Source: Clostridia bacterium
GTDB lineage: Bacteria; Bacillota; Clostridia; Christensenellales; CAG-138
NCBI GenBank assembly: GCA_017619735.1
Contig: JAFZRT010000007.1
Span: 14,703 to 78,702 of the forward strand
Direction: 5' to 3'
DNA: 64,000 nt
Under the pieces are notes generated by a model. The model saw nothing but the letters and a program-made list of their open reading frames with translations. It searched no databases and was not told where the DNA came from. The position numbers were made by a program, and so were the translations under genes. Of this stretch, positions 638-34,229 are shown piece by piece (position 1 is the stretch's first letter; each line of letters starts with the position of its first letter).

Positions 638-1627
638 ATGTTTGAGACATTGATAGCGGCGGACGTCGGCTCCTCGGTAACGAGGCTCGCCGTCAGGAAC
701 GCCGTTTCGGAAAACGAGACGAGGGCGGCGCTCGACCCCGAGGATACGAGGCGCGTGCTGGCCGTAGGCAACGAGGCGCGCAAGCTTTTGAACACGGCGG
801 AGGCCTATCCCGTAAGAGGGGGAGGCATTGCCGACGTATCCCTCGCGGCGATAATGCTTCGGCGGTTCGCGCTCGACCTTCTGAAAAGGCGGCCGCTCTT
901 CGGAGCGTCGCTCGTTTTGGCCGTGCCCCTTGCGGCGAACCCGCTTTCAAGGGCGGCGGCGCTGGAGGCCGGACGCGAGGCGGGCTTCCGCAGGGTCGGC
1001 GTCATCGACAGTCTTATCGCCGGCGCGGAGGGCGCGGGGCTCGATTATTCGGGCTCAGGCGCGCGCATGCTCGTCGACGTCGGCCGCGACAGCGTAAAGA
1101 CGGCGATCTTCGCGAGCGGCGGGCTGATACGGGAGACCTTCTCACCGTTCGGCAGTTCCGCCGCGGACCGCGCGATCAGGGACCGTCTGGCGCGGGAAAC
1201 GCGGCTGATCATCGGCTCCCGCACGGCGGAAAGGATAAAAAAGAGCCTGGCGGCGCCCCTCGTAAGGGTCTGCGGGCGCGACCTCAAAACGGGGCTCCCC
1301 GCGACGAAGGATATCCCGACCGCGTCCCTGCGGCAGGCGGCGGACGGCTTTGCGGAGGAGCTCTCGCGGGAGATCGTCGCCGCGATATCCTCCGTGCATC
1401 CGGAGGCGGCGTCCGACCTTGTGGACAGCGGCGTCACGCTAACGGGCGGCGGCGCGCTGCTCTTCGGGCTGGGCTCCGCGCTCGAGGAGCGTTTGGGGAT
1501 ACCGGTATCGATCGCCCAAAACGCGGAGAGCGCGGTGATCGACGGCCTTGTCAGGCAGCTGCGCAGAGCGGCCGCCCAAAACCTTTCGGAGCTCACCGCC
1601 CGCGCGAAGGCGTCCGGGACGATATAA
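638..1627 (+). CDS. Divergent MreB/Mbl-like actin-family protein
   Basis: Colinear with MreB: VLAVGNEARKLL, GGIADVS, IIGSRTAERIKKSL, GRDLKTGLP, VTLTGGGALL, GIPVSIA. The phosphate-binding loops are degenerate (ADVGSSVT and VDVGRDSV instead of DLGTANT and DIGGGTT). A GGAGG RBS lies upstream. Confidence 0.7.
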   Translation: MFETLIAADVGSSVTRLAVRNAVSENETRAALDPEDTRRVLAVGNEARKLLNTAEAYPVRGGGIADVSLAAIMLRRFALDLLKRRPLFGASLVLAVPLAANPLSRAAALEAGREAGFRRVGVIDSLIAGAEGAGLDYSGSGARMLVDVGRDSVKTAIFASGGLIRETFSPFGSSAADRAIRDRLARETRLIIGSRTAERIKKSLAAPLVRVCGRDLKTGLPATKDIPTASLRQAADGFAEELSREIVAAISSVHPEAASDLVDSGVTLTGGGALLFGLGSALEERLGIPVSIAQNAESAVIDGLVRQLRRAAAQNLSELTARAKASGTI

Positions 1628-1633
1628 AAAAAC

Positions 1634-1671
1634 ATCCGGGGACGTCCGATATCCCCGGATATTTTCTTTTT
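1634..1671 (+). terminator. Intrinsic terminator after the mreB-like gene
   Basis: Stem ATCCGGGGA / TCCCCGGAT with a 9-nt loop, followed by a T-rich tract (ATTTTCTTTTT). Confidence 0.65.
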
Positions 1672-1724
1672 CTGCGCCTGATACCGGCGCCGCTTTTCGG
1701 GATTGCACCCTTTCAGGGTACGCG

Positions 1725-2279
1725 TCAGATCATTATGACGTGATCCTCGTTCCACTCGTGCGGCTCCTTGTCCGTTGCGCGGCGGCCGACGGAGATGGCG
1801 ATTGAGAACTCGAACCCCTCGGGGAAGCGGAACAGCTCGCGCATGGCGCGGCCCTCCTCGCCGGAGAAAGCGCCCTCCGGCATGCCGAGGATCACGCTGT
1901 CAAGGCCGATGCTCTTCGCCGCGAGGGCGATGTTCTCGACCGCTATGCCCGCGTCCACGCGGGAGAAATGCGCGGGCCTGCTGCATATGACCACTACGAG
2001 CGGCGCGCCGTAGGTCGGCTTGCCGCCGCGGGCCTTCATCCTCTCGGCGAACTCGACGTTGCCGGAGCGGACGATGCCCTCCATTATCTCATTGTCGAGC
2101 CGTTCTATCAGCGCGGCGTCCGTCGCGAAAACGAACCGCTGATCCTGCCTGTTCATTGCCGTGGGCGAGGAGAGCGCGGCCTTTTTAAGTACGGCGAGCT
2201 CCTTTTCCGTAAGCTTTTCGGGCTTGTAGCCCCTTATGCTGCTCCTTTTGAGCATCGCGTCCAAAACCATGTTTATCAT
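1725..2279 (-). CDS. Nitroreductase family protein
   Basis: N-terminus KRSSIRGYKPEKLTEKELAVLKKAALSSPTAMNRQ and overall length (184 aa) are typical of FMN-dependent nitroreductases. Confidence 0.8.
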   Translation of the reverse strand: MINMVLDAMLKRSSIRGYKPEKLTEKELAVLKKAALSSPTAMNRQDQRFVFATDAALIERLDNEIMEGIVRSGNVEFAERMKARGGKPTYGAPLVVVICSRPAHFSRVDAGIAVENIALAAKSIGLDSVILGMPEGAFSGEEGRAMRELFRFPEGFEFSIAISVGRRATDKEPHEWNEDHVIMI

Positions 2280-2423
2280 GTGCTTTACCTCCGTTCCCGA
2301 TTTGTTTTCATTATACCATATTATTCAAGAAAAAACCATAGCTTTTCCTGCCGTTTCCGCTCATGCGGAGCCGATTTTGCGCCAAAACTAATCACGGCAG
2401 AAAATCGAGAGGAGGTATTTATA

Positions 2424-2567
2424 ATGAAGCTTTGGGGCTTTGCGGCAGGCATGGCGCTCGGCATGACTGCGGCGACGGTCGCCGTCACGACGGTCTATCC
2501 GGGCGTCGCCAAAAAGATGAAGCGCGACGGCAAAAGACTGTGGCGCGGCATCACGAATATGCTCTGA
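2424..2567 (+). CDS. Small membrane protein (47 aa), function unknown
   Basis: ATG 7 nt after GAGAGGAGG. One hydrophobic helix (FAAGMALGMTAATVAVTTV) then a basic tail. A terminator follows. Confidence 0.45.
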   Translation: MKLWGFAAGMALGMTAATVAVTTVYPGVAKKMKRDGKRLWRGITNML

Positions 2568-2573
2568 GAAAGC

Positions 2574-2613
2574 GGAAGACGGCGGAGGGTGTGCTCCGCC
2601 GCCTTCCGTTTTC
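2574..2613 (+). terminator. Intrinsic terminator
   Basis: Stem GGAAGACGGCGGAG / CTCCGCCGCCTTCC with loop GGTGTG, followed by GTTTTC. Confidence 0.7.
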
Positions 2614-2654
2614 GGGCGCACGGACAATTATTTGGAAGAAATCGGTTTTGACTA

Positions 2655-2683
2655 TTGAGCGGAACCCGAATATATGTTATAAT
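2655..2683 (+). promoter_or_regulatory. Sigma-A-type promoter upstream of ireB
   Basis: TTGAGC, 17 nt, TATAAT, with a TGT extended -10 element. About 120 nt of leader lies before the ireB start. Confidence 0.5.
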
Positions 2684-2808
2684 AAAGTGAGGTTTTATAG
2701 TGACATGGCGATAAGACCCGCGCCCGGCGGGGTTTTCCGCGGGGCGAAAGCAATAACGGCACCCTGTGCCGAGAAAGGACGCCTTTAGAATCAGGCAACA
2801 GATCCAGC

Positions 2809-3078
2809 ATGAGCGGAAACATGAACACCATCAAATTCAAGATGCCCAAGGATAAGCAGACCGCCCACGAGGTGCTTATGCAGGCCTACTCCTCCATGAA
2901 GGAGAAGGGTTACGATCCCGTGAACCAGATAGTCGGCTATCTGCTCTCCGGCGATCCCACCTATATCACGAGCTACAACAACGCCCGCTACCTCATCAGC
3001 ACGCTGGAGAGGGACGAGCTCATCGAGGAGCTCGTAAAGAGCTATATCGAAGTCAACAGCTCCGGAGACGAAGAGTGA
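2809..3078 (+). CDS. ireB: IreB family regulatory phosphoprotein (UPF0297, YrzL-like)
   Basis: [47 protein letters not shown] nearly matches the B. subtilis YrzL core. The conserved neighbours ruvX and DUF1292 lie downstream. Confidence 0.9.
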
Positions 3079-4019
3079 AGTATTCAGCGCTCGGCAGGAC
3101 GGGCATAGAGGTATCGAAGCTCTGCTTCGGCACGCTTACCATGGGGCCCTTCCAAAGGGACCTCAGCGTAAAAGATGGGGCGGCTCTATTTGAGCGCGCC
3201 TTTTCCCATGGCGTCAATTTCCTCGATACGGCGGAGATATACGAGACATATCCCCACGTTCGGGAGGCGCTGCGCATAAAGCCCGACGCCGTCGTCTGCA
3301 CGAAGAGCTATTCCTACGACACGAAGACCGCGGAGGCCTCCTTCAGAAAGGCCGTCGAGGGCATCGGCCGCGACTATATCGACGTGTTCCTCCTCCACGA
3401 GCAGGAGAGCGGCCTCACGATAAAGGGGCATTGGGAGGCCATAGAGTACTTCCTCCGCAAAAAGGAGGAGGGACGGATCGGCGCGATCGGCCTCTCGACC
3501 CACTACGTCGCCTGCATGAACGCGGCGATCAGGGTGAACGAGCTCGACGTGCTCTTCCCGCTGATAAACAAGAAGGGGGTCGGCATCGCCGACGGCACCG
3601 CCGAGGATATGCTTGACGCGATACGCCGCGCCCGCGAAGCGGGCAAGGGCATAATCGCGATGAAGCCCCTGGGCGGCGGCCACCTCATCTCGGAGCGAGA
3701 GGAGGCGCTGAGGTTCATACTCGGCGTTCCCGACGTCGACACCATCGCGATAGGCATGCAGTCGATCGACGAGGTCGATTACGACTGCGCCGTGTTCTCC
3801 GGGGAGGAGCCCGATCCCGAGCTTGCCGAAAGACTGGGCCGGGTCAGGCGGAGGATGCTGATACAGGATTGGTGCCAGGGCTGCGGAACATGCGTCGGCG
3901 CCTGCCGCAATCACGCGATCGGCATGGAGGACGGCATAGCCAGGATCGACTACTCCAAATGCGCCACCTGCGGCTACTGCGCGCGGGTCTGCCCCAATTT
4001 CAATATCAAAGTCATTTAA
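3075..4019 (+). CDS. Aldo/keto reductase fused to a C-terminal 2x[4Fe-4S] ferredoxin domain
   Basis: The GTG start overlaps the ireB stop (GTGA). AKR-like N-terminal region ([24 protein letters not shown]). C-terminal cluster motifs [11 protein letters not shown] and [12 protein letters not shown]. Confidence 0.8.
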
Positions 4020-4035
4020 GGAAGGAACTGAAAGG

Positions 4036-4467
4036 ATGTACCGCTATTTCGGCGTCGACGTCGGCGACAAAAGGATAGGCCTTGCCGTAACGGACGCCCT
4101 GGGCTTCACGGCGCAGGGGCTCGAGACGTACGCCCGCACCGGCGACGACGAGAGGGACGCCGCATACATAAGAGAAGCCGCGATGAAATGGGCTCCCTGC
4201 CGCATCGTTTTCGGCCTGCCTCGCAATATGGACGGCTCCTACGGCTTCGCCTGCGACAAGGTGAAGGCCTTTGCCGAGCTCGTGCTCGACGGCTGGGAGG
4301 GCGAACACGATTTCTACGACGAGCGCCTATCCACCATGGCGGCCGAGCGCTTCCTCTATGAAGCGGAGCTCAAATGGCAGAAGCGCCGCAAGGTCGTGGA
4401 CAAGATCGCCGCGCAGGTGATACTGGAGGGCTACATGACGCTTAAGCCCGTCAAGCTCGATCAATAA
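4036..4467 (+). CDS. ruvX: Holliday junction resolvase-like RuvX (YqgF/YrrK)
   Basis: N-terminus FGVDVGDKRIGLAVTD, plus GLPRNMDGS and a 143-aa length are typical of YqgF. Confidence 0.9.
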   Translation: MYRYFGVDVGDKRIGLAVTDALGFTAQGLETYARTGDDERDAAYIREAAMKWAPCRIVFGLPRNMDGSYGFACDKVKAFAELVLDGWEGEHDFYDERLSTMAAERFLYEAELKWQKRRKVVDKIAAQVILEGYMTLKPVKLDQ

Positions 4468-4484
4468 CAGAAAGGATCGTTATT

Positions 4485-4778
4485 ATGGAAAGGAATTACG
4501 ACGGACCGACCGCCGTCACCCTGATAGGAGAGGACGGCAAAGAGGTGACGCTCCTGCACGAGCTCACCTTCATGTACGAGAACGAGCGCTACATGGCGCT
4601 GACTCCGGATACGGACGGGGAGGACGAAGAGGCGGAGGTCCTCTTCATGAAGCTCGTGAAGGAAAACGGCGAGGACGCGCTCGCCCCCGTCGAGAACGAG
4701 GTGCTCCTCGACGAGCTCTTCGAGGTCTTCTGCGAACTCATGGACGGAGACGGGGAAGAGGGTCCCGAAGAGGAATAA
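4485..4778 (+). CDS. DUF1292 (YrzB/UPF0473) domain protein
   Basis: Small acidic protein with ERYMALTP...EVLFMKLV. It sits in the conserved position after ruvX. Confidence 0.8.
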   Translation: MERNYDGPTAVTLIGEDGKEVTLLHELTFMYENERYMALTPDTDGEDEEAEVLFMKLVKENGEDALAPVENEVLLDELFEVFCELMDGDGEEGPEEE

Positions 4779-29021: not shown

Positions 29022-30911
29022 ATGCGTGAATACTACCCCCTGCTCCTCGGCGGAGGAATAATCGGACTCATCTCCATCGTCCTCATCGTCGCCTACGCCT
29101 CCATAAAGGACAAAAAACAGGCGATCGGCTTCGACCGCCACATGAAGGACGGCGAGATAATACGCCGCCTCCTCGCTTACGCAAAGCCCTACGTATGGCA
29201 TTTCGTGCTCGTCGGGGTCATTGTCATCGCCGGCATAGCGTACGACATAATCTCCCCGATAATCATCGGCAACATAACGAAGCTGATCAACACGGATTTC
29301 GCCCTTGCGAAGCTGTTCCGTCTGGTCGCGGTCTACGCGGGCATACTGATAGTATCCATGGTCTGCACCTACGCGCAGGCGATAATACTGCAGAGGATAG
29401 GCCAGAAGATAATCTCCGGCATGCGCGAGGATCTCTTTACGCACATAGAATCCCTCTCGCACGAGCAGATGAACTCCATACCCGTCGGCAAGCTCGTTAC
29501 CAGGGTCACGAACGATACCAACGCGATATCGCTCATGTTCACCTCGCTCCTCGTGAACCTCGTGAAGAACGTGTTCATAATCGTCGGCGTGTTCGCCGCG
29601 ATGCTCGCGCTCAACGTGGAGCTCACGCTCATGGTGCTCTGCTTCGTGCCGTTCATTGTGCTCTTCACGGTCATTTTCCGCAAGTTCGCGCGCCGCGCCT
29701 ACCGCAAGGTCAAGGACCGCACGACGGACATCAACACCTATCTGTCGGAGAACCTTTCCGGCATCAAGATCACGCAGATATTCAACCGCGAGGATGAAAA
29801 GCTGCGCGACTTCTCCGAAAAGAGCCGCGGCCTCGGCAAGGCCAAGCGCGAGCAGATACTGGTGTTCGGCATATTCCGGCCCCTCGTCTACATGCTCTAT
29901 ATCAGCTCCGTGCTGGCGCTGTTCTATCTGGGCGGCAAGGGCCATCTCGACGGGGCGAGCTTCCTCGGCCGCGCCATAGAGGCGTCGACGATAGTCAGCT
30001 TCTACATGTATATCAACAAGTTCTTCAACCCGATACAGAACCTCGCGGAGCAGTTCAACTGGCTGCAGTCGGCGTTCGCCTCGGCGGAAAAGGTGTTCAC
30101 GATAATGGATATCGAGCCCGCGCTCAAAGACGCGGAGGACGCGATAGAGCTTGAGAACGTCCGCGGCGAGATCGAGTTCAGGGACGTCTGGTTCAGCTAC
30201 ATCCCCGGCGAATGGGTGCTGAAGGGCGTTTCCTTCCGCGTCGACCCGGGCGAGACCGTCGCGTTCGTCGGCCCGACCGGCTCCGGCAAGACGACCATAC
30301 TCTCGCTTATCTGCCGCAATTACGAGTTCCAGAAGGGCGAGATACTGATCGACGGCATAGACATCAGGAAGATAAAGGCCGCCTCGCTGCGTAAGCATTT
30401 CGGTCAGATGCTGCAGGATGTGTTCCTGTTCTCCGGCACCATTAGGAGCAATATCCTGCTCGATATGGACGGAGTCTCCGACGAGGAGGTCATGGAGGCC
30501 TGCCGCTACGTCAACGCGGATCACTTCATAGACCGCCTCGAAAACGGTCTGGACGAGATCGTGCGCGAGCGCGGCAACAACTTCTCCGCGGGCCAGAGAC
30601 AGCTCCTGAGCTTCGCCCGCACCATCATCCACAAGCCGGAGGTCATGATACTGGACGAGGCCACCGCCAACATCGACACCGAGACGGAGGTCCTCATACA
30701 GGATTCGCTCGAAAAGATGATGAACATCGGCACCATGCTCATAGTCGCGCACCGGCTTTCGACCATACAGCACGCCGACAACATAATCGTCCTCTCCAAG
30801 GGCGAGATCGTCGAGCAGGGCACCCATCAGGAGCTTTTGAACCTCCACGGCAAGTACCACGCGCTCTATATGCTCCAGTTCGAAAAGGAGAAGCAGCGGC
30901 TGGGCGAATAA
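29022..30911 (+). CDS. ABC exporter, fused permease/ATPase (heterodimer subunit 2)
   Basis: Six TM helices, Walker A GPTGSGKTT, signature FSAGQRQL, Walker B VMILDEAT. Confidence 0.9.
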   Translation: MREYYPLLLGGGIIGLISIVLIVAYASIKDKKQAIGFDRHMKDGEIIRRLLAYAKPYVWHFVLVGVIVIAGIAYDIISPIIIGNITKLINTDFALAKLFRLVAVYAGILIVSMVCTYAQAIILQRIGQKIISGMREDLFTHIESLSHEQMNSIPVGKLVTRVTNDTNAISLMFTSLLVNLVKNVFIIVGVFAAMLALNVELTLMVLCFVPFIVLFTVIFRKFARRAYRKVKDRTTDINTYLSENLSGIKITQIFNREDEKLRDFSEKSRGLGKAKREQILVFGIFRPLVYMLYISSVLALFYLGGKGHLDGASFLGRAIEASTIVSFYMYINKFFNPIQNLAEQFNWLQSAFASAEKVFTIMDIEPALKDAEDAIELENVRGEIEFRDVWFSYIPGEWVLKGVSFRVDPGETVAFVGPTGSGKTTILSLICRNYEFQKGEILIDGIDIRKIKAASLRKHFGQMLQDVFLFSGTIRSNILLDMDGVSDEEVMEACRYVNADHFIDRLENGLDEIVRERGNNFSAGQRQLLSFARTIIHKPEVMILDEATANIDTETEVLIQDSLEKMMNIGTMLIVAHRLSTIQHADNIIVLSKGEIVEQGTHQELLNLHGKYHALYMLQFEKEKQRLGE

Positions 30912-30931
30912 CGAACAATAAAAAAACCGGA

Positions 30932-30943
30932 GCTCACGCTCCG
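30932..30943. repeat. Left copy of the 12-bp direct repeat GCTCACGCTCCG flanking the AT-rich island
   Basis: Exact 12-mer, also present at 32310-32321. It lies within the half-terminator AAAAAAACCGGAGCTCACGCTCCG. Confidence 0.8.
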
Positions 30944-31254
30944 ACCGTCATAAGGATGTTTTTTGAAGGGTTGGTGTGTTCTCGATATATGAGAGCAAAC
31001 CGCTCTTCATTTGTTGTCAAGATACGAGTTTCAGATATTTGGGATCGTTCTGCGGGGATGCTCATCATACCGGCTACGGTGAAGTAGATATCGACCTTAA
31101 CGTGGCCGTGCCGGTCGTATTTGTCGTTGTTATGCACCTCGATCCGCTCGATCAGCGAATTGACGAGAGTGGGTGTAAGCTCCTTTATATCCGTCAATTC
31201 ACGGACGGTCTTGAGCAGCAGCCTAATGCTATCGGCCAATATCGCTGTCCGCAT
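30934..31254 (-). pseudogene. C-terminal fragment of a large serine recombinase (DUF4368-like region)
   Basis: LTDIKELTPTLVNSLIERIEVHNNDKYDRHGHVKVDIYFTVAG resembles the DUF4368 C-terminus of TndX-like serine recombinases. No resolvase catalytic domain is present. The upstream part of the ORF-track frame overlaps the neighbouring lipoprotein gene. The stop codon lies inside the host-derived repeat. Confidence 0.6.
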
Positions 31255-31762
31255 AGTATCCGACCCACCAATACTCATCTGTTTTCTGAAATTCCTTGGT
31301 CCACGGAAATATAAAATACGATAGATCCTGATCATCGTTTGTTTCGCAGTAAAACAGTATTGTTTCAAAATCCCCATGCCTATATAAAAACTTGATCACA
31401 TTTTTACCGATCTTTGTGTTCCTTTCGATCCTATTCAGACCGGTAATGCGAAACAACTCAGTGATATCGCTCCATTCTTCTTCCGAAAAATAAGCGCAAT
31501 CTCCTTCAAAGTAAATATCTATCGCCGATTCATTTTGAACGAGCATGAATCGTTTCATCGCTTCATTTTCTTCCACGATCTTGGCAACATGCTCGAACTT
31601 CTCACGATATTGAGTAAAGACTTGAATGAGCTCCTCAACGGAGTATGCTCGCAGCTGCTCATTATCAATGATCAAATCCCAAGAATAAGGAACCTTGTGC
31701 GAACACGAAGCAGCAAGCAGTAATGTCAAGAAGACTAAAGCCAAGGCAGCAGTCCTTTTCAT
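31229..31762 (-). CDS. Lipoprotein, candidate immunity partner of the upstream toxin-like gene
   Basis: Lipobox signal MKRTAALALVFLTLLLAASC. 4-nt ATGA overlap with the upstream gene. AT-rich. I recognise no homology. Confidence 0.5.
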   Translation of the reverse strand: MKRTAALALVFLTLLLAASCSHKVPYSWDLIIDNEQLRAYSVEELIQVFTQYREKFEHVAKIVEENEAMKRFMLVQNESAIDIYFEGDCAYFSEEEWSDITELFRITGLNRIERNTKIGKNVIKFLYRHGDFETILFYCETNDDQDLSYFIFPWTKEFQKTDEYWWVGYYADSDIGR

Positions 31763-32283
31763 TCGAAAACTCCTTTCAAATATAGGTAGTAACCTAATAT
31801 AATATTGTTAAAATCATCAACTTGATCGCCATAATGTCCAAAATATCCAAGTTGATTAGCGCGACGCAGAGAACTGAAAAATCCACGGCCCTCTCCTTGT
31901 TCAATACGGGGCTTCCTTAATTGAGCAGCGCCAGCTTGTTTAAGCAGCGTATTTAATGGAATACCCATTGCCACTCCTACAGCTCCATAATTAATATTTC
32001 CAAGATCAGATGCGCTAATCTTTTTAACGTAAAACATATAAGTTGGAATTTCACCCGGAAAAAGAAGACTTGGTAACGCTTTCTTCCATCTTGATACAAC
32101 TTTATAATCCATCGGACCGTTCTTTTTCACTTGGAAATAGAACCATGCATATTTACACAACTCAACGATTGATTGCGTTGTTCGCATAGATTGTACTGCA
32201 TGCGGATCAAGTCCCGCCGGAGTTGAATAAGTGGAAAGAGCGTGTCGTTTTGCTTTTTTTACATTATTTGCAATCAGCTCCAA
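31759..32283 (-). CDS. Orphan polymorphic-toxin-like domain protein (Ntox44 / toxin type 44-like)
   Basis: TTG start 8 nt after AAGGAAG. Motifs VKKNGPMDYK, DLGNINYGAVGVAMG and LLKQAGAAQL match my recollection of the type-44 toxin signature (WDYK ... GNxNYG ... AGxxQ). There is no N-terminal delivery domain and no signal peptide. Confidence 0.5.
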   Translation of the reverse strand: MELIANNVKKAKRHALSTYSTPAGLDPHAVQSMRTTQSIVELCKYAWFYFQVKKNGPMDYKVVSRWKKALPSLLFPGEIPTYMFYVKKISASDLGNINYGAVGVAMGIPLNTLLKQAGAAQLRKPRIEQGEGRGFFSSLRRANQLGYFGHYGDQVDDFNNIILGYYLYLKGVFE

Positions 32284-32309
32284 TATTAGTGCTTCCTTAT
32301 CACTATCGG

Positions 32310-32321
32310 GCTCACGCTCCG
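32310..32321. repeat. Right copy of the 12-bp direct repeat GCTCACGCTCCG
   Basis: Exact match to 30932-30943, followed by GTTTTTC (the other half of the split terminator). Confidence 0.8.
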
Positions 32322-32330
32322 GTTTTTCTT

Positions 32331-34229
32331 TTACCTTTTCGGAGTTCTCTTCGGCTTCGGTCCCTGCGGGGGCTTTTTGCCCGCGGGTCGTGAGGGCTTA
32401 CCGCCGCCGCTCCTATCGGGCTTCGCCCTGCCATCCGGCACGAGGCAGTCGCGCCCGTTCCCAATAAGATCCTCGCGGCCGGCCTTGATGAGCGCCTGAC
32501 GCGCGGTCTCGCGGTAATAGGGCATGAAGTACTGCATCAGCGCCCTCTGCATCGCCTTCTCCTTTGGATCGCGCGGCACGTACACGGGCTGCATATCGCG
32601 CGGGTCGAGCCCCGTATGGAACATGCAGGTCGAGAGCGTGCCCGGCGTGGGGTAGAAGTCCTGCACCTGCTCCGGACGCTGGCCCGTCCTTTTGAGGTAC
32701 AGCGCGAGCTCTATAGCGGAATCGAGCGTGCTTCCCGGGTGACTGCTCATGAAGTACGGCACTATGTACTGCTCCATGCCGAGGCGTTCGTTGAGCTTTT
32801 TGTACTTGGCGCAGAAGCGGTCGTAAAGCCCGCCCGCGGGCTTGCCCATGAGCCGCAGTACGCCGTCCGAGATATGCTCTGGCGCGACCTTCAGCTGTCC
32901 CGAGACGTGATGCTTTATCAGCTCCCGCATGAAGGAGTCGTCCCTGTCGAACATCAGGTAATCATAGCGGATGCCGCTCCTGACGAATACCTTTTTGACG
33001 CCCTCGACCGCGCGGAGCTTTTTTAAGAGCTCGGTGAAATCGCGGTGGTCGACCTCCACGTTTCTGCAGTGCTCGTAGCCCAGACACTGCCGCTTTTTGC
33101 ATACGCCCTTCGTCAGCTGTTTTTTGCAGGCGGGATGACGGAAATTGGCCGTCGGGCCGCCCACGTCGTGTATGTATCCCTTGAAGTTGGGGAGCTTCGT
33201 CAGTATCCGCGCCTCCCTCAAAAGCGATTCGTGGCTGCGCGCCTGTATAACGCGCCCCTGATGGAAGGTCAGCGCGCAGAACGAGCACGCGCCGAAGCAG
33301 CCCCTCGTCGAGACGAGCGAGAACTCGACCTCGTCTATGGCGGGGATGTGCTCCGTATAGGAGGGGTGGGGGAGCCGCGTGTACGGCAGCTCGTATACGT
33401 CGTCCAGCTCCTGCGTCGTCAGCGGCATAGCAGGCGGGTTGGCGACGAGCCATCTCTGCCCGTGCTTCTGCACAAGGCGGCGGCCGGAGATCGCGTCCTG
33501 CTCCTCGTATTGGCGCATGAACGCGCGGCAGTACGCCTTTTTGTCGGAGGACACCGCCTCGAAGCTCTCTATCTCGTCGTGATCGTAAACGTTTTCAAGC
33601 GAGCTCGTCATGAAGCATGTGCCCGCTACGTAGGTGATATCGTGCACGTCGAGGCCGGAGGCCAGCGCGTCTGCTATCTCGACCGCCTGTCTTTCGCCCA
33701 TGCCGTAGGAGAGCAGGTCCGCTCCGGAGTCGTCGAGCACGCTGCGGCGGACGCGGTCGTCCCAGTAATCGTAGTGGGCGAAGCGGCGGAGGCTCGCCTC
33801 GATGCCGCCTATCACGATCGGCACGGAGCCGTACGCCTCCCTTATGCGGTTGCAGTAGACGGTGACCGCCCTGTCGGGGCGCAGACCGATCCTCCCGCCG
33901 GGGGAATAGCTGTCCTCGGAGCGGCGCTTTTTCGAGCTGGTGTAGTGGTTCACCATGGAGTCCATGTTGCCGCTGTTGACGAGGAAGGCGAGCCGCGGCC
34001 TGCCGAAGACGGTGAACGGCTCCGCTCTCCTCCAGTCGGGCTGCGCGATTATCGCGACGGAGTACCCGCGCGAGGCGAGCACGCGCCCGATTATGGCCGT
34101 GCCGAAGGAGGGGTGATCGACATACGCGTCACCCGTCACTATCACGAAATCCGGCACTTCCGTACCGAAAACCTCTATGAGCTCCGCCCTTGTCATGGGC
34201 AGAGGCCGCCTATACGAGGTCAAGTCCAT
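32331..34229 (-). CDS. ygiQ: YgiQ family radical SAM protein (UPF0313)
   Basis: LPMTRAELIEVFG...VIVTGDAYVDHPSFGTAIIGRVLASRGYSVAIIAQPDW parallels the E. coli YgiQ N-terminus. Radical SAM CxxxCxxC motif (CFGACSFC). Basic Lys/Pro-rich tail. Confidence 0.9.
   Translation of the reverse strand: MDLTSYRRPLPMTRAELIEVFGTEVPDFVIVTGDAYVDHPSFGTAIIGRVLASRGYSVAIIAQPDWRRAEPFTVFGRPRLAFLVNSGNMDSMVNHYTSSKKRRSEDSYSPGGRIGLRPDRAVTVYCNRIREAYGSVPIVIGGIEASLRRFAHYDYWDDRVRRSVLDDSGADLLSYGMGERQAVEIADALASGLDVHDITYVAGTCFMTSSLENVYDHDEIESFEAVSSDKKAYCRAFMRQYEEQDAISGRRLVQKHGQRWLVANPPAMPLTTQELDDVYELPYTRLPHPSYTEHIPAIDEVEFSLVSTRGCFGACSFCALTFHQGRVIQARSHESLLREARILTKLPNFKGYIHDVGGPTANFRHPACKKQLTKGVCKKRQCLGYEHCRNVEVDHRDFTELLKKLRAVEGVKKVFVRSGIRYDYLMFDRDDSFMRELIKHHVSGQLKVAPEHISDGVLRLMGKPAGGLYDRFCAKYKKLNERLGMEQYIVPYFMSSHPGSTLDSAIELALYLKRTGQRPEQVQDFYPTPGTLSTCMFHTGLDPRDMQPVYVPRDPKEKAMQRALMQYFMPYYRETARQALIKAGREDLIGNGRDCLVPDGRAKPDRSGGGKPSRPAGKKPPQGPKPKRTPKR

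Follow-up and report, generated by a model that had tools for sequence, protein, structure and literature searches.

A probable remnant of a Tn4451-like element in a split transcription terminator of a Clostridia bacterium

What kind of mobile DNA comes to lie inside a transcription terminator, and what remains of it there? This question is raised by an AT-rich island of 1.37 kb found between two convergent host genes, one for an ABC exporter and the other of the ygiQ family, in a 64-kb stretch of DNA (the window) from Clostridia bacterium assembly GCA_017619735.1, contig JAFZRT010000007.1. The host genome is 1.86 Mb and 92% complete, and the congeners with which we compared it are uncultured Clostridia from ruminant guts. 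The initial annotation described the island as a decayed integrative-element remnant of mosaic origin set in a bidirectional terminator, and this description is supported by the empty sites of relatives, the single copy of the island in its genome, its sharp three-part mosaic structure, and the homology of its ends. We suggest going one step further, since most probably the island is a gutted mobilisable transposon of the Tn4451/Tn4453 kind, having a DUF4368 (TnpX/TndX-type) recombinase and inserted in the loop of the ABC exporter/ygiQ terminator. As read from the DNA, one hairpin was split, both arms of the element flank the insert, and the interior of the element has been gutted.

The island is bounded by a 12-bp direct repeat, GCTCACGCTCCG, present at 30932-30943 and again at 32310-32321, precisely where it had been reported, with a spacing of 1366 nucleotides (nt) between the two copies. 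It is the sole exact direct repeat of at least 12 nt within 30500-32800, and a search of the window allowing up to one mismatch gave no third site. As had also been claimed, removal of one repeat copy together with the 1366 nt rebuilds AAAAAAACCGGAGC-TCAC-GCTCCGGTTTTT, a perfect hairpin with an A-run and a T-run, and the 57-mer of the rebuilt site folds on both strands at -19.7 and -23.8 kcal/mol (one value per strand). This hairpin stands 9 nt from the stop codon of the ABC exporter gene and 9 nt from that of ygiQ, and it has the G+C-rich (guanine plus cytosine) stem-loop, the A-run and T-run, and the position between convergent genes that are typical of a bidirectional intrinsic terminator. 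Its host halves now lie apart: on the left (30920..30933), the A-run at 30920-30926 and the 5' stem CCGGAGC at 30927-30933, and on the right (32316..32327), the 3' stem GCTCCGG at 32316-32322, which pairs with the former in the fold of the rebuilt site, followed by the T-run at 32323-32327. The base composition changes here as abruptly as the initial annotation had it, whose four hand counts of G+C per 60 nt (19, 18, 30, and 45) are all exact on recount. The computed G+C profile falls from about 0.60 to 0.41 near both repeat copies, the drop beginning within ~100 nt of each, and the G+C is 0.414 for 30944-32309 vs. 0.570 and 0.623 in the 2-kb flanks and 0.604 in the whole window.

In one respect the earlier description was mistaken, namely that each junction keeps only the complementary half of the hairpin. 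The left junction holds the whole stem-loop CGGAGC-TCAC-GCTCCG, its repeat copy spanning part of the stem, the TCAC loop, and the 3' stem, and on the minus strand it makes a complete intrinsic terminator at 30925..30946, with a 9-pair stem and then TTTTT, according to both the terminator scan and the fold. The right junction holds a weaker 6-pair hairpin with a T-run on the plus strand. No minus-strand terminator was found at the right junction by the same scan, and ygiQ is, thus, left without a terminator of its own ahead of the island.

A pseudogene on the minus strand at 31017..31224 corresponds to the final ~60 codons of a large serine recombinase gene with DUF4368 (Pfam DUF4368, 3.6e-16) and retains the former stop codon at 31017-31019. 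It aligns to residues ~488-547 of a 567-aa recombinase of the congener G001, with a broken frame and an internal deletion near 31045-31056 of some 40-50 nt, a size that is approximate because it comes from a gapped local alignment. The island contains this DUF4368 tail only, with neither a catalytic domain nor a relaxase, and no other DUF4368 match was found in the host genome. The island is a remnant and not an autonomous member of the DUF4368 element family, and it is now immobile on its own because the genome has neither a matching recombinase nor an RHS shell.

Both ends of the island match those of such an element. The recombinase-side arm (P', 30941..30959, CCGACCGTCATAAGGATGT) is nearly identical to the ends of full-length elements in G001, G012, and G007, whose three recombinases are 97-100% identical in their amino acids and lie at three different sites. 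The DNA of these three elements is homologous to the left end of the island through ...CATCCTTATGACGGTCGG, and the homology ends at the junction, so that the search for full-length parents which had been proposed did find full-length serine-recombinase element ends homologous to the island up to its left junction. The far-side arm (P, 32292..32311, CTTCCTTATCACTATCGGGC) matches the far end of the Tn4451-like element of G001 (GCCCGACCGTGATAAGGAAG in locus L100), and it forms an inverted repeat with the left arm, in which 32294-32309 is complementary at 13 of 16 positions, the two being imperfect inverted arms. A genus-wide search with the arm pattern, which in its strict form failed on the right end of the window's own island, yet revealed this far end of G001, found as GGCCCGACCGTGATAAGGAAG on a second G001 contig beside TnpV and a helix-turn-helix (HTH)/sigma-r4 gene. 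The right end of the island, read on the other strand, is GAGCCCGATAGTGATAAGGAAG, that is, the same arm.

The two G001 contigs have TnpV at the C33 end and a relaxase, ParB-N, and the 567-aa recombinase at the C59 end. We infer that they are the two ends of one insertion because their joined host flanks, ACGCTCCGCAGCG-CA and CA-TACTGCGGGGCGTTTTTT, rebuild an 11-bp hairpin followed by a T-run, with the shared CA in the loop; if they are indeed one element, both contigs together would make up a Tn4451-like gene set. For the far ends of other subfamilies, inverted-arm searches in the loci and in two whole genomes gave recombinase-side ends only, and the elements of L061 and L067 share ~8 kb of homology with no clear far boundary. 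As a separate feature, the full-length elements (L046, ~4520-4570) show a strong inward-facing hairpin just inside the recombinase-side arm, and then a T-run on the opposite strand, which would serve as a terminator against transcription entering the element from outside. In the equivalent region of the island (30960-31010) this hairpin survives in a decayed form, as a 6-pair stem at 30991-31007.

The same intergenic site is found unoccupied in relatives. The left flank is the ABC exporter gene at 29022..30911 on the plus strand (629 aa, stop codon at 30909-30911, Pfam ABC_membrane and ABC_tran), recognisable in 10 same-genus genomes with 85-90% nucleotide identity and conserved synteny, and the right flank is the radical SAM gene of the ygiQ family at 32331..34229 on the minus strand (Pfam Radical_SAM_N at 9e-132, and DUF3362). 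Both flanks are on one contig in 8 genomes. In four same-genus species (G005, G013, G004, and G001) the two genes are separated solely by a single intact two-way hairpin with an A-run and a T-run and no island, which is the empty site that the initial annotation had proposed to look for. The stems of these empty sites vary among species, the closest being that of G005 (CCCCGGAG...CTCCGGGG). An ordinary hairpin without an insert is what the closest of the sampled congeners have at this site.

This landing in a terminator is not peculiar to our locus. The search with the G001 recombinase as the query gave 48 loci, and when the element boundary was set where related copies diverge, a T-run starting 5-25 nt outside the element was found at 24 of 28 recombinase-side junctions, compared with a rate of 8% in neighbouring host DNA (binomial p ~6e-23). 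Three of the four misses are possibly one shared site. Given this excess of outside T-runs over the background, the DUF4368 element family habitually lands in terminators. A published survey classed the DUF4368 clade as “multi-targeting” and TndX-like (PMC10083194), and the words “terminator” and “hairpin” do not occur in its main text. Our literature searches found no description of terminator-loop targeting by these recombinases, and the rule, thus, appears to be undescribed in the searchable literature.

How would such an insertion leave a 12-bp repeat? The repeat is best read as a core common to the attachment site of the element and to the hairpin, and not as a transposase-made duplication, with the left copy (30932..30943) being the attB/attP common core within attL and the right copy (32310..32321) the same core within attR. 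Most likely, a recombinase dimer exploited the dyad symmetry of the hairpin, treating it as attB, and the crossover fell inside a 12-bp stretch that was by chance common to attP and attB; such chance sharing would explain a repeat of 12 bp rather than 2 bp. With attB as ...CCGGAGCTCACGCTCCGGTTTTT and attP as ...TATCGG-GCTCACGCTCCGACCG..., a crossover anywhere in the common 12 bp would yield both of the observed junctions. The crossover site can, indeed, fall anywhere in the 12 shared bp, and the rebuilt G001 site shares CA only. The repeat also extends as CGG(A)GCTCACGCTCCG (CGG(A)GC) with one indel, and this fits similar but separate att arms better than a copied target.

The consequences for transcription would follow from the same geometry. 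The inner arm of the element probably mimics the stem, and in this way a full terminator would be restored at the left junction for minus-strand transcripts. Since ygiQ lost its own terminator and one was regained at the left junction, the genes carried by the island are probably read through from ygiQ, whose transcription would now cross them and end at the left junction. The interior of the element (the catalytic part of the recombinase, the relaxase, TnpV, etc.) would have been lost at this site, or else earlier, before the element made its final move in trans as a mini-element. The initial annotation had overlooked the probable attP/attB core, the other arm of the element at the right end, the predicted RHS-type toxin and immunity cargo, and the terminator at the left junction, which would still work.

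As for the cargo, the three open reading frames of the island are all on the minus strand. Judging from the sequence, the island is a three-part mosaic made up of the recombinase tail with the recombinase-side end, an immunity gene, and an Ntox44 toxin tip abutting the ~20-nt arm. Its joints are sharp, a three-way DNA alignment showing homology to the G001 recombinase up to 31224 and homology to an immunity locus (G002:C30) from 31225 (joint at 31224..31225). The putative immunity gene at 31229..31762 on the minus strand encodes 177 aa with a lipoprotein-type signal (MKR...LLLAASC), and its start overlaps the stop codon of the toxin gene (ATGA). The latter, at 31759..32283 on the minus strand, has a TTG start and encodes 174 aa, an orphan C-terminal toxin domain of the Ntox44 family (Pfam Ntox44, 4.5e-15). 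This domain is complete, covering profile positions 1-102 of 104 (102 of the 104) with every invariant residue retained, and the frame stays open upstream, across the right junction.

The origin of this pair is indicated by its relatives. Homologues of the toxin are few, all of them being C-terminal tips of RHS/YD toxins, and the toxin reading frame of the island starts right where such a tip starts, just past the position of the RHS DPxGL-type boundary. The contig L094, which belongs to the same sample series and comes from a ruminant gut metagenome, encodes an RHS toxin with a 64%-identical Ntox44 tip, and directly after it, again with an ATGA overlap, comes the gene of a lipoprotein of 50% identity; a homologous pair, although weak, is also present in L095, and a 63%-identical immunity homologue is found in an immunity-only locus of G002. 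The ATGA overlap and these homologous pairs point to a predicted immunity gene directly downstream of an Ntox44 toxin. The RHS/YD shell and the delivery region are absent, with no TEN_YD-shell match anywhere in the host genome. The immunity lipoprotein is probably what selection retains here, and it would protect the host against rumen neighbours armed with RHS-Ntox44 toxins. The three homologous Ntox44 immunity proteins (window 31229-31762; L033, 450-1049; L094, 4646-5173) start with MKR, a hydrophobic stretch, and an ...SC motif, much like the signal of a lipoprotein. If the immunity protein is exported, the Ntox44 toxin family may act outside the cytoplasm. Ntox44 is a predicted RNase, which would not fit such a location.

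Several observations weigh against a DUF4368 element inserted in the terminator loop. No catalytic part of the recombinase is present, the enzyme being deduced from a 60-codon tail and from the homology of the ends, and the far-side arm is only ~20 nt long and overlaps the codons D-S-D-K-E, possibly of the start of the toxin module, so its match is perhaps partly coincidental. The toxin and immunity proteins gave no cargo match among all the fetched recombinase loci, and no sampled full-length element carries this module. TnpX/TndX elements are described as having a GA crossover dinucleotide and 2-bp repeats, in comparison with which 12 bp is atypical, and the repeat here does not allow the point of crossover to be located. 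Neither was an assembled contig with the empty allele of the same species found: an exact search of JGI metagenome contigs for the rebuilt empty site gave two matches, both in unrelated loci with an identical terminator string, and in the 90% protein clusters of both flank genes the other members are 85.5-91% identical, i.e., from other species, with the exception of a longer call of the window's own ygiQ.

If a Tn4451-like element did land here, how did it lose its interior? It is quite possible, although we would not take it for granted, that a full-length element was inserted, decayed in place by at least two internal deletions, and has been immobile since. The broken frame of the recombinase tail with its further ~40-50-nt deletion and the sharp joint at 31224/31225 agree with such a history, and so do seven metagenome contigs (from five ENA assemblies and two Logan runs, some perhaps of the same samples) that carry the island, all in the same context and with 99.95-100% identity to the window over the aligned stretch. 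On the other hand, decay in place needs a deletion end-point within ~20 nt of the far end that left the arm unharmed, and it has to explain a cargo that is in no sampled full-length element.

Alternatively, the 1.37-kb unit may have been reduced elsewhere to a non-autonomous mini-element and moved here whole by a recombinase acting in trans, and it may still excise precisely where the enzyme is present, a course of events that we regard as possible and only slightly less favoured. Both arms are retained even though nearly everything else is gone, and the cargo directly abuts the 20-nt far arm. A parallel is seen in G010 (L025, G010:C8, 1355-1666, minus-strand reading), where a gene-less insert of 294 bp occupies a terminator-like hairpin directly 3' of the orthologous ABC exporter gene. 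A 9-bp direct repeat, GCATAAGCC, flanks this insert, whose inverted ends are similar to the recombinase arms, and removal of the insert rebuilds AAAAAACCGGGGCTTATGCCACGGTTTTTTT. Moreover, the Logan contig L038 begins exactly at 30914 and stops exactly at 32339, adding 18 nt to each repeat copy, so that its ends correspond to k-1 = 30 if k was 31 (the k values being assumed and not taken from records), and the ENA scaffold_1926, which shares an overlap of 55 nt with scaffold_1357, breaks off exactly at 32310. These contig ends at the repeat edges hint that filled and empty alleles coexist, since an assembly graph with both alleles breaks at such end-points. Contig ends are, of course, indirect evidence, and the mini-element also has against it that the island is a single copy at a single site among everything searched, in a genome without a recombinase of the DUF4368 clade.

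A broader proposal would make the island one member of a dispersed cassette system, composed of small non-autonomous Tn4451-like derivatives that keep their two short arms, are moved in trans by DUF4368 recombinases, land in terminator loops, are transcribed by read-through, and rebuild a terminator behind them; the island would then ferry an orphan immunity gene with a toxin tip and would still be excising in rumen populations. We consider such a system rather unlikely at present, and offer it as a speculation.

Very improbable, in turn, is the view that a DDE transposase produced the 12 bp as a target-site duplication, or that the repeat arose by chance, with the recombinase fragment being incidental. 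Direct repeats around an insert are, of course, the classic mark of a transposase, and 12 bp exceeds what is expected of a serine recombinase. We rejected the transposase nevertheless, given that no transposase gene, fragment, or domain is found among the open reading frames of the island, that the ends on both sides match a serine-recombinase element, and that the one-indel extension of the repeat is as expected for similar, non-identical att arms. Chance was rejected as well, because 2.3 kb of DNA should contain, by our estimate, ~0.16 exact 12-mer repeats, and because the hairpin rebuilt from this repeat is perfect. The presence of the island in the ancestor of the genus, followed by its precise loss from every species without it, has a negligible probability and was rejected too. 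In its favour, G010, G007, G003, and G012 also hold extra DNA at the site, but this DNA is unrelated to the island, the G+C of the island is 0.41 vs. 0.60, and the closest sampled congeners are empty with ordinary hairpins.

As a gutted DUF4368 element, the island can be compared with the known Tn4451/Tn4453 (TnpX) and Tn5397 (TndX) transposons. As in these, DUF4368 is found in the recombinase tail, the two ends form imperfect inverted arms, and the full relative in G001 has TnpV, relaxase, and recombinase genes. The presence of 97-100% identical recombinases at three sites among the relatives also agrees with multi-targeting as published (PMC10083194). In contrast to these transposons, the island retains no more than ~280 nt at the recombinase side and ~20 nt at the opposite end, lacks the catalytic domain, the relaxase, and a resistance gene, has a repeat of 12 bp instead of 2 bp, and has a terminator loop as its target. 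The cargo, on its side, resembles the orphan toxin-tip and immunity cassettes of RHS/YD loci in that the Ntox44 tip begins after a DPxGL-type boundary and is followed by an overlapping immunity gene, with a homologous pair in the rhs locus L094. It differs from them in that the pair is not downstream of a main rhs gene and lacks any part of the rhs core through which it could recombine, and that it is housed within the remnant of a recombinase element in a genome without a YD shell.

Hairpins are also the homing targets of class C group II introns, which choose terminators, and of insertion sequence (IS) elements such as IS1397, which choose the loops of repetitive extragenic palindromic (REP) sequences. 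The likeness is that a hairpin common throughout genomes serves as a harmless landing site, and the complete difference is in the chemistry and in the enzyme, which is a ribozyme with a reverse transcriptase in group II introns, a DDE transposase in IS elements, and a serine recombinase here.

The island itself is a small relic, or a mini-derivative, of serine-recombinase transposons of a family already known, uncommon in its cargo and of moderate interest, and its value is mainly in adding one more well-resolved case of the targeting rule. It is among the cleanest readable examples of this recombinase family landing in a terminator hairpin, with both junctions, the rebuilt target, the empty sister sites, and a full-length relative in hand. 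Should the terminator-loop rule hold generally, the “multi-targeting” of a clade that is under development for genome-engineering tools is explained, and the landing places of such enzymes could be predicted in any bacterial genome. Additionally, an RHS-toxin immunity gene on a recombinase element would be one route for bystander species to gain protection in the dense rumen community.

The ABC exporter-ygiQ intergenic site is an insertion hot spot, because four other congeners hold unrelated DNA there. Besides the insert of G010, G012 (L027, G012:C51, ~1000-4700) has a 3.9-kb block with an extracytoplasmic function (ECF)-type sigma factor, a putative anti-sigma protein, and a 590-aa S8 peptidase, whose gene appears lower in G+C than the surrounding DNA. 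G007 has an 884-bp gap with one open frame on the minus strand, HEAT-repeat-like as judged by eye. G003 (L023, G003:C20, ~900-1190, minus strand) has ~300 bp without an open reading frame, bounded by a long inverted repeat (AAGGAACGGATAAGGGTGCATTCACTTAAGG ... CGTTAAGTGAATGCGCCC...CCGTTCCTT), and this may be another kind of miniature element. An Rfam scan of the island, of the G010 insert, and of the G003 insert gave nothing at the gathering score, and a comparison of the island DNA with plasmid and phage records gave no match.

Two minor observations concern the toxin gene and the hairpin. The short contigs L039 and L040, from different assemblies and samples, both start at position 31930 of the window, within the toxin gene, which suggests a variant diverging there, either a single-nucleotide polymorphism (SNP) bubble or a different 5' part of the toxin. 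Finally, the exact 24-mer ACCGGAGCTCACGCTCCGGTTTTT is found as a terminator-like hairpin in two JGI metagenome contigs (L104 and L105) that are otherwise unlike the window, and the same stem-loop would, thus, have arisen, or spread, in unrelated contexts.

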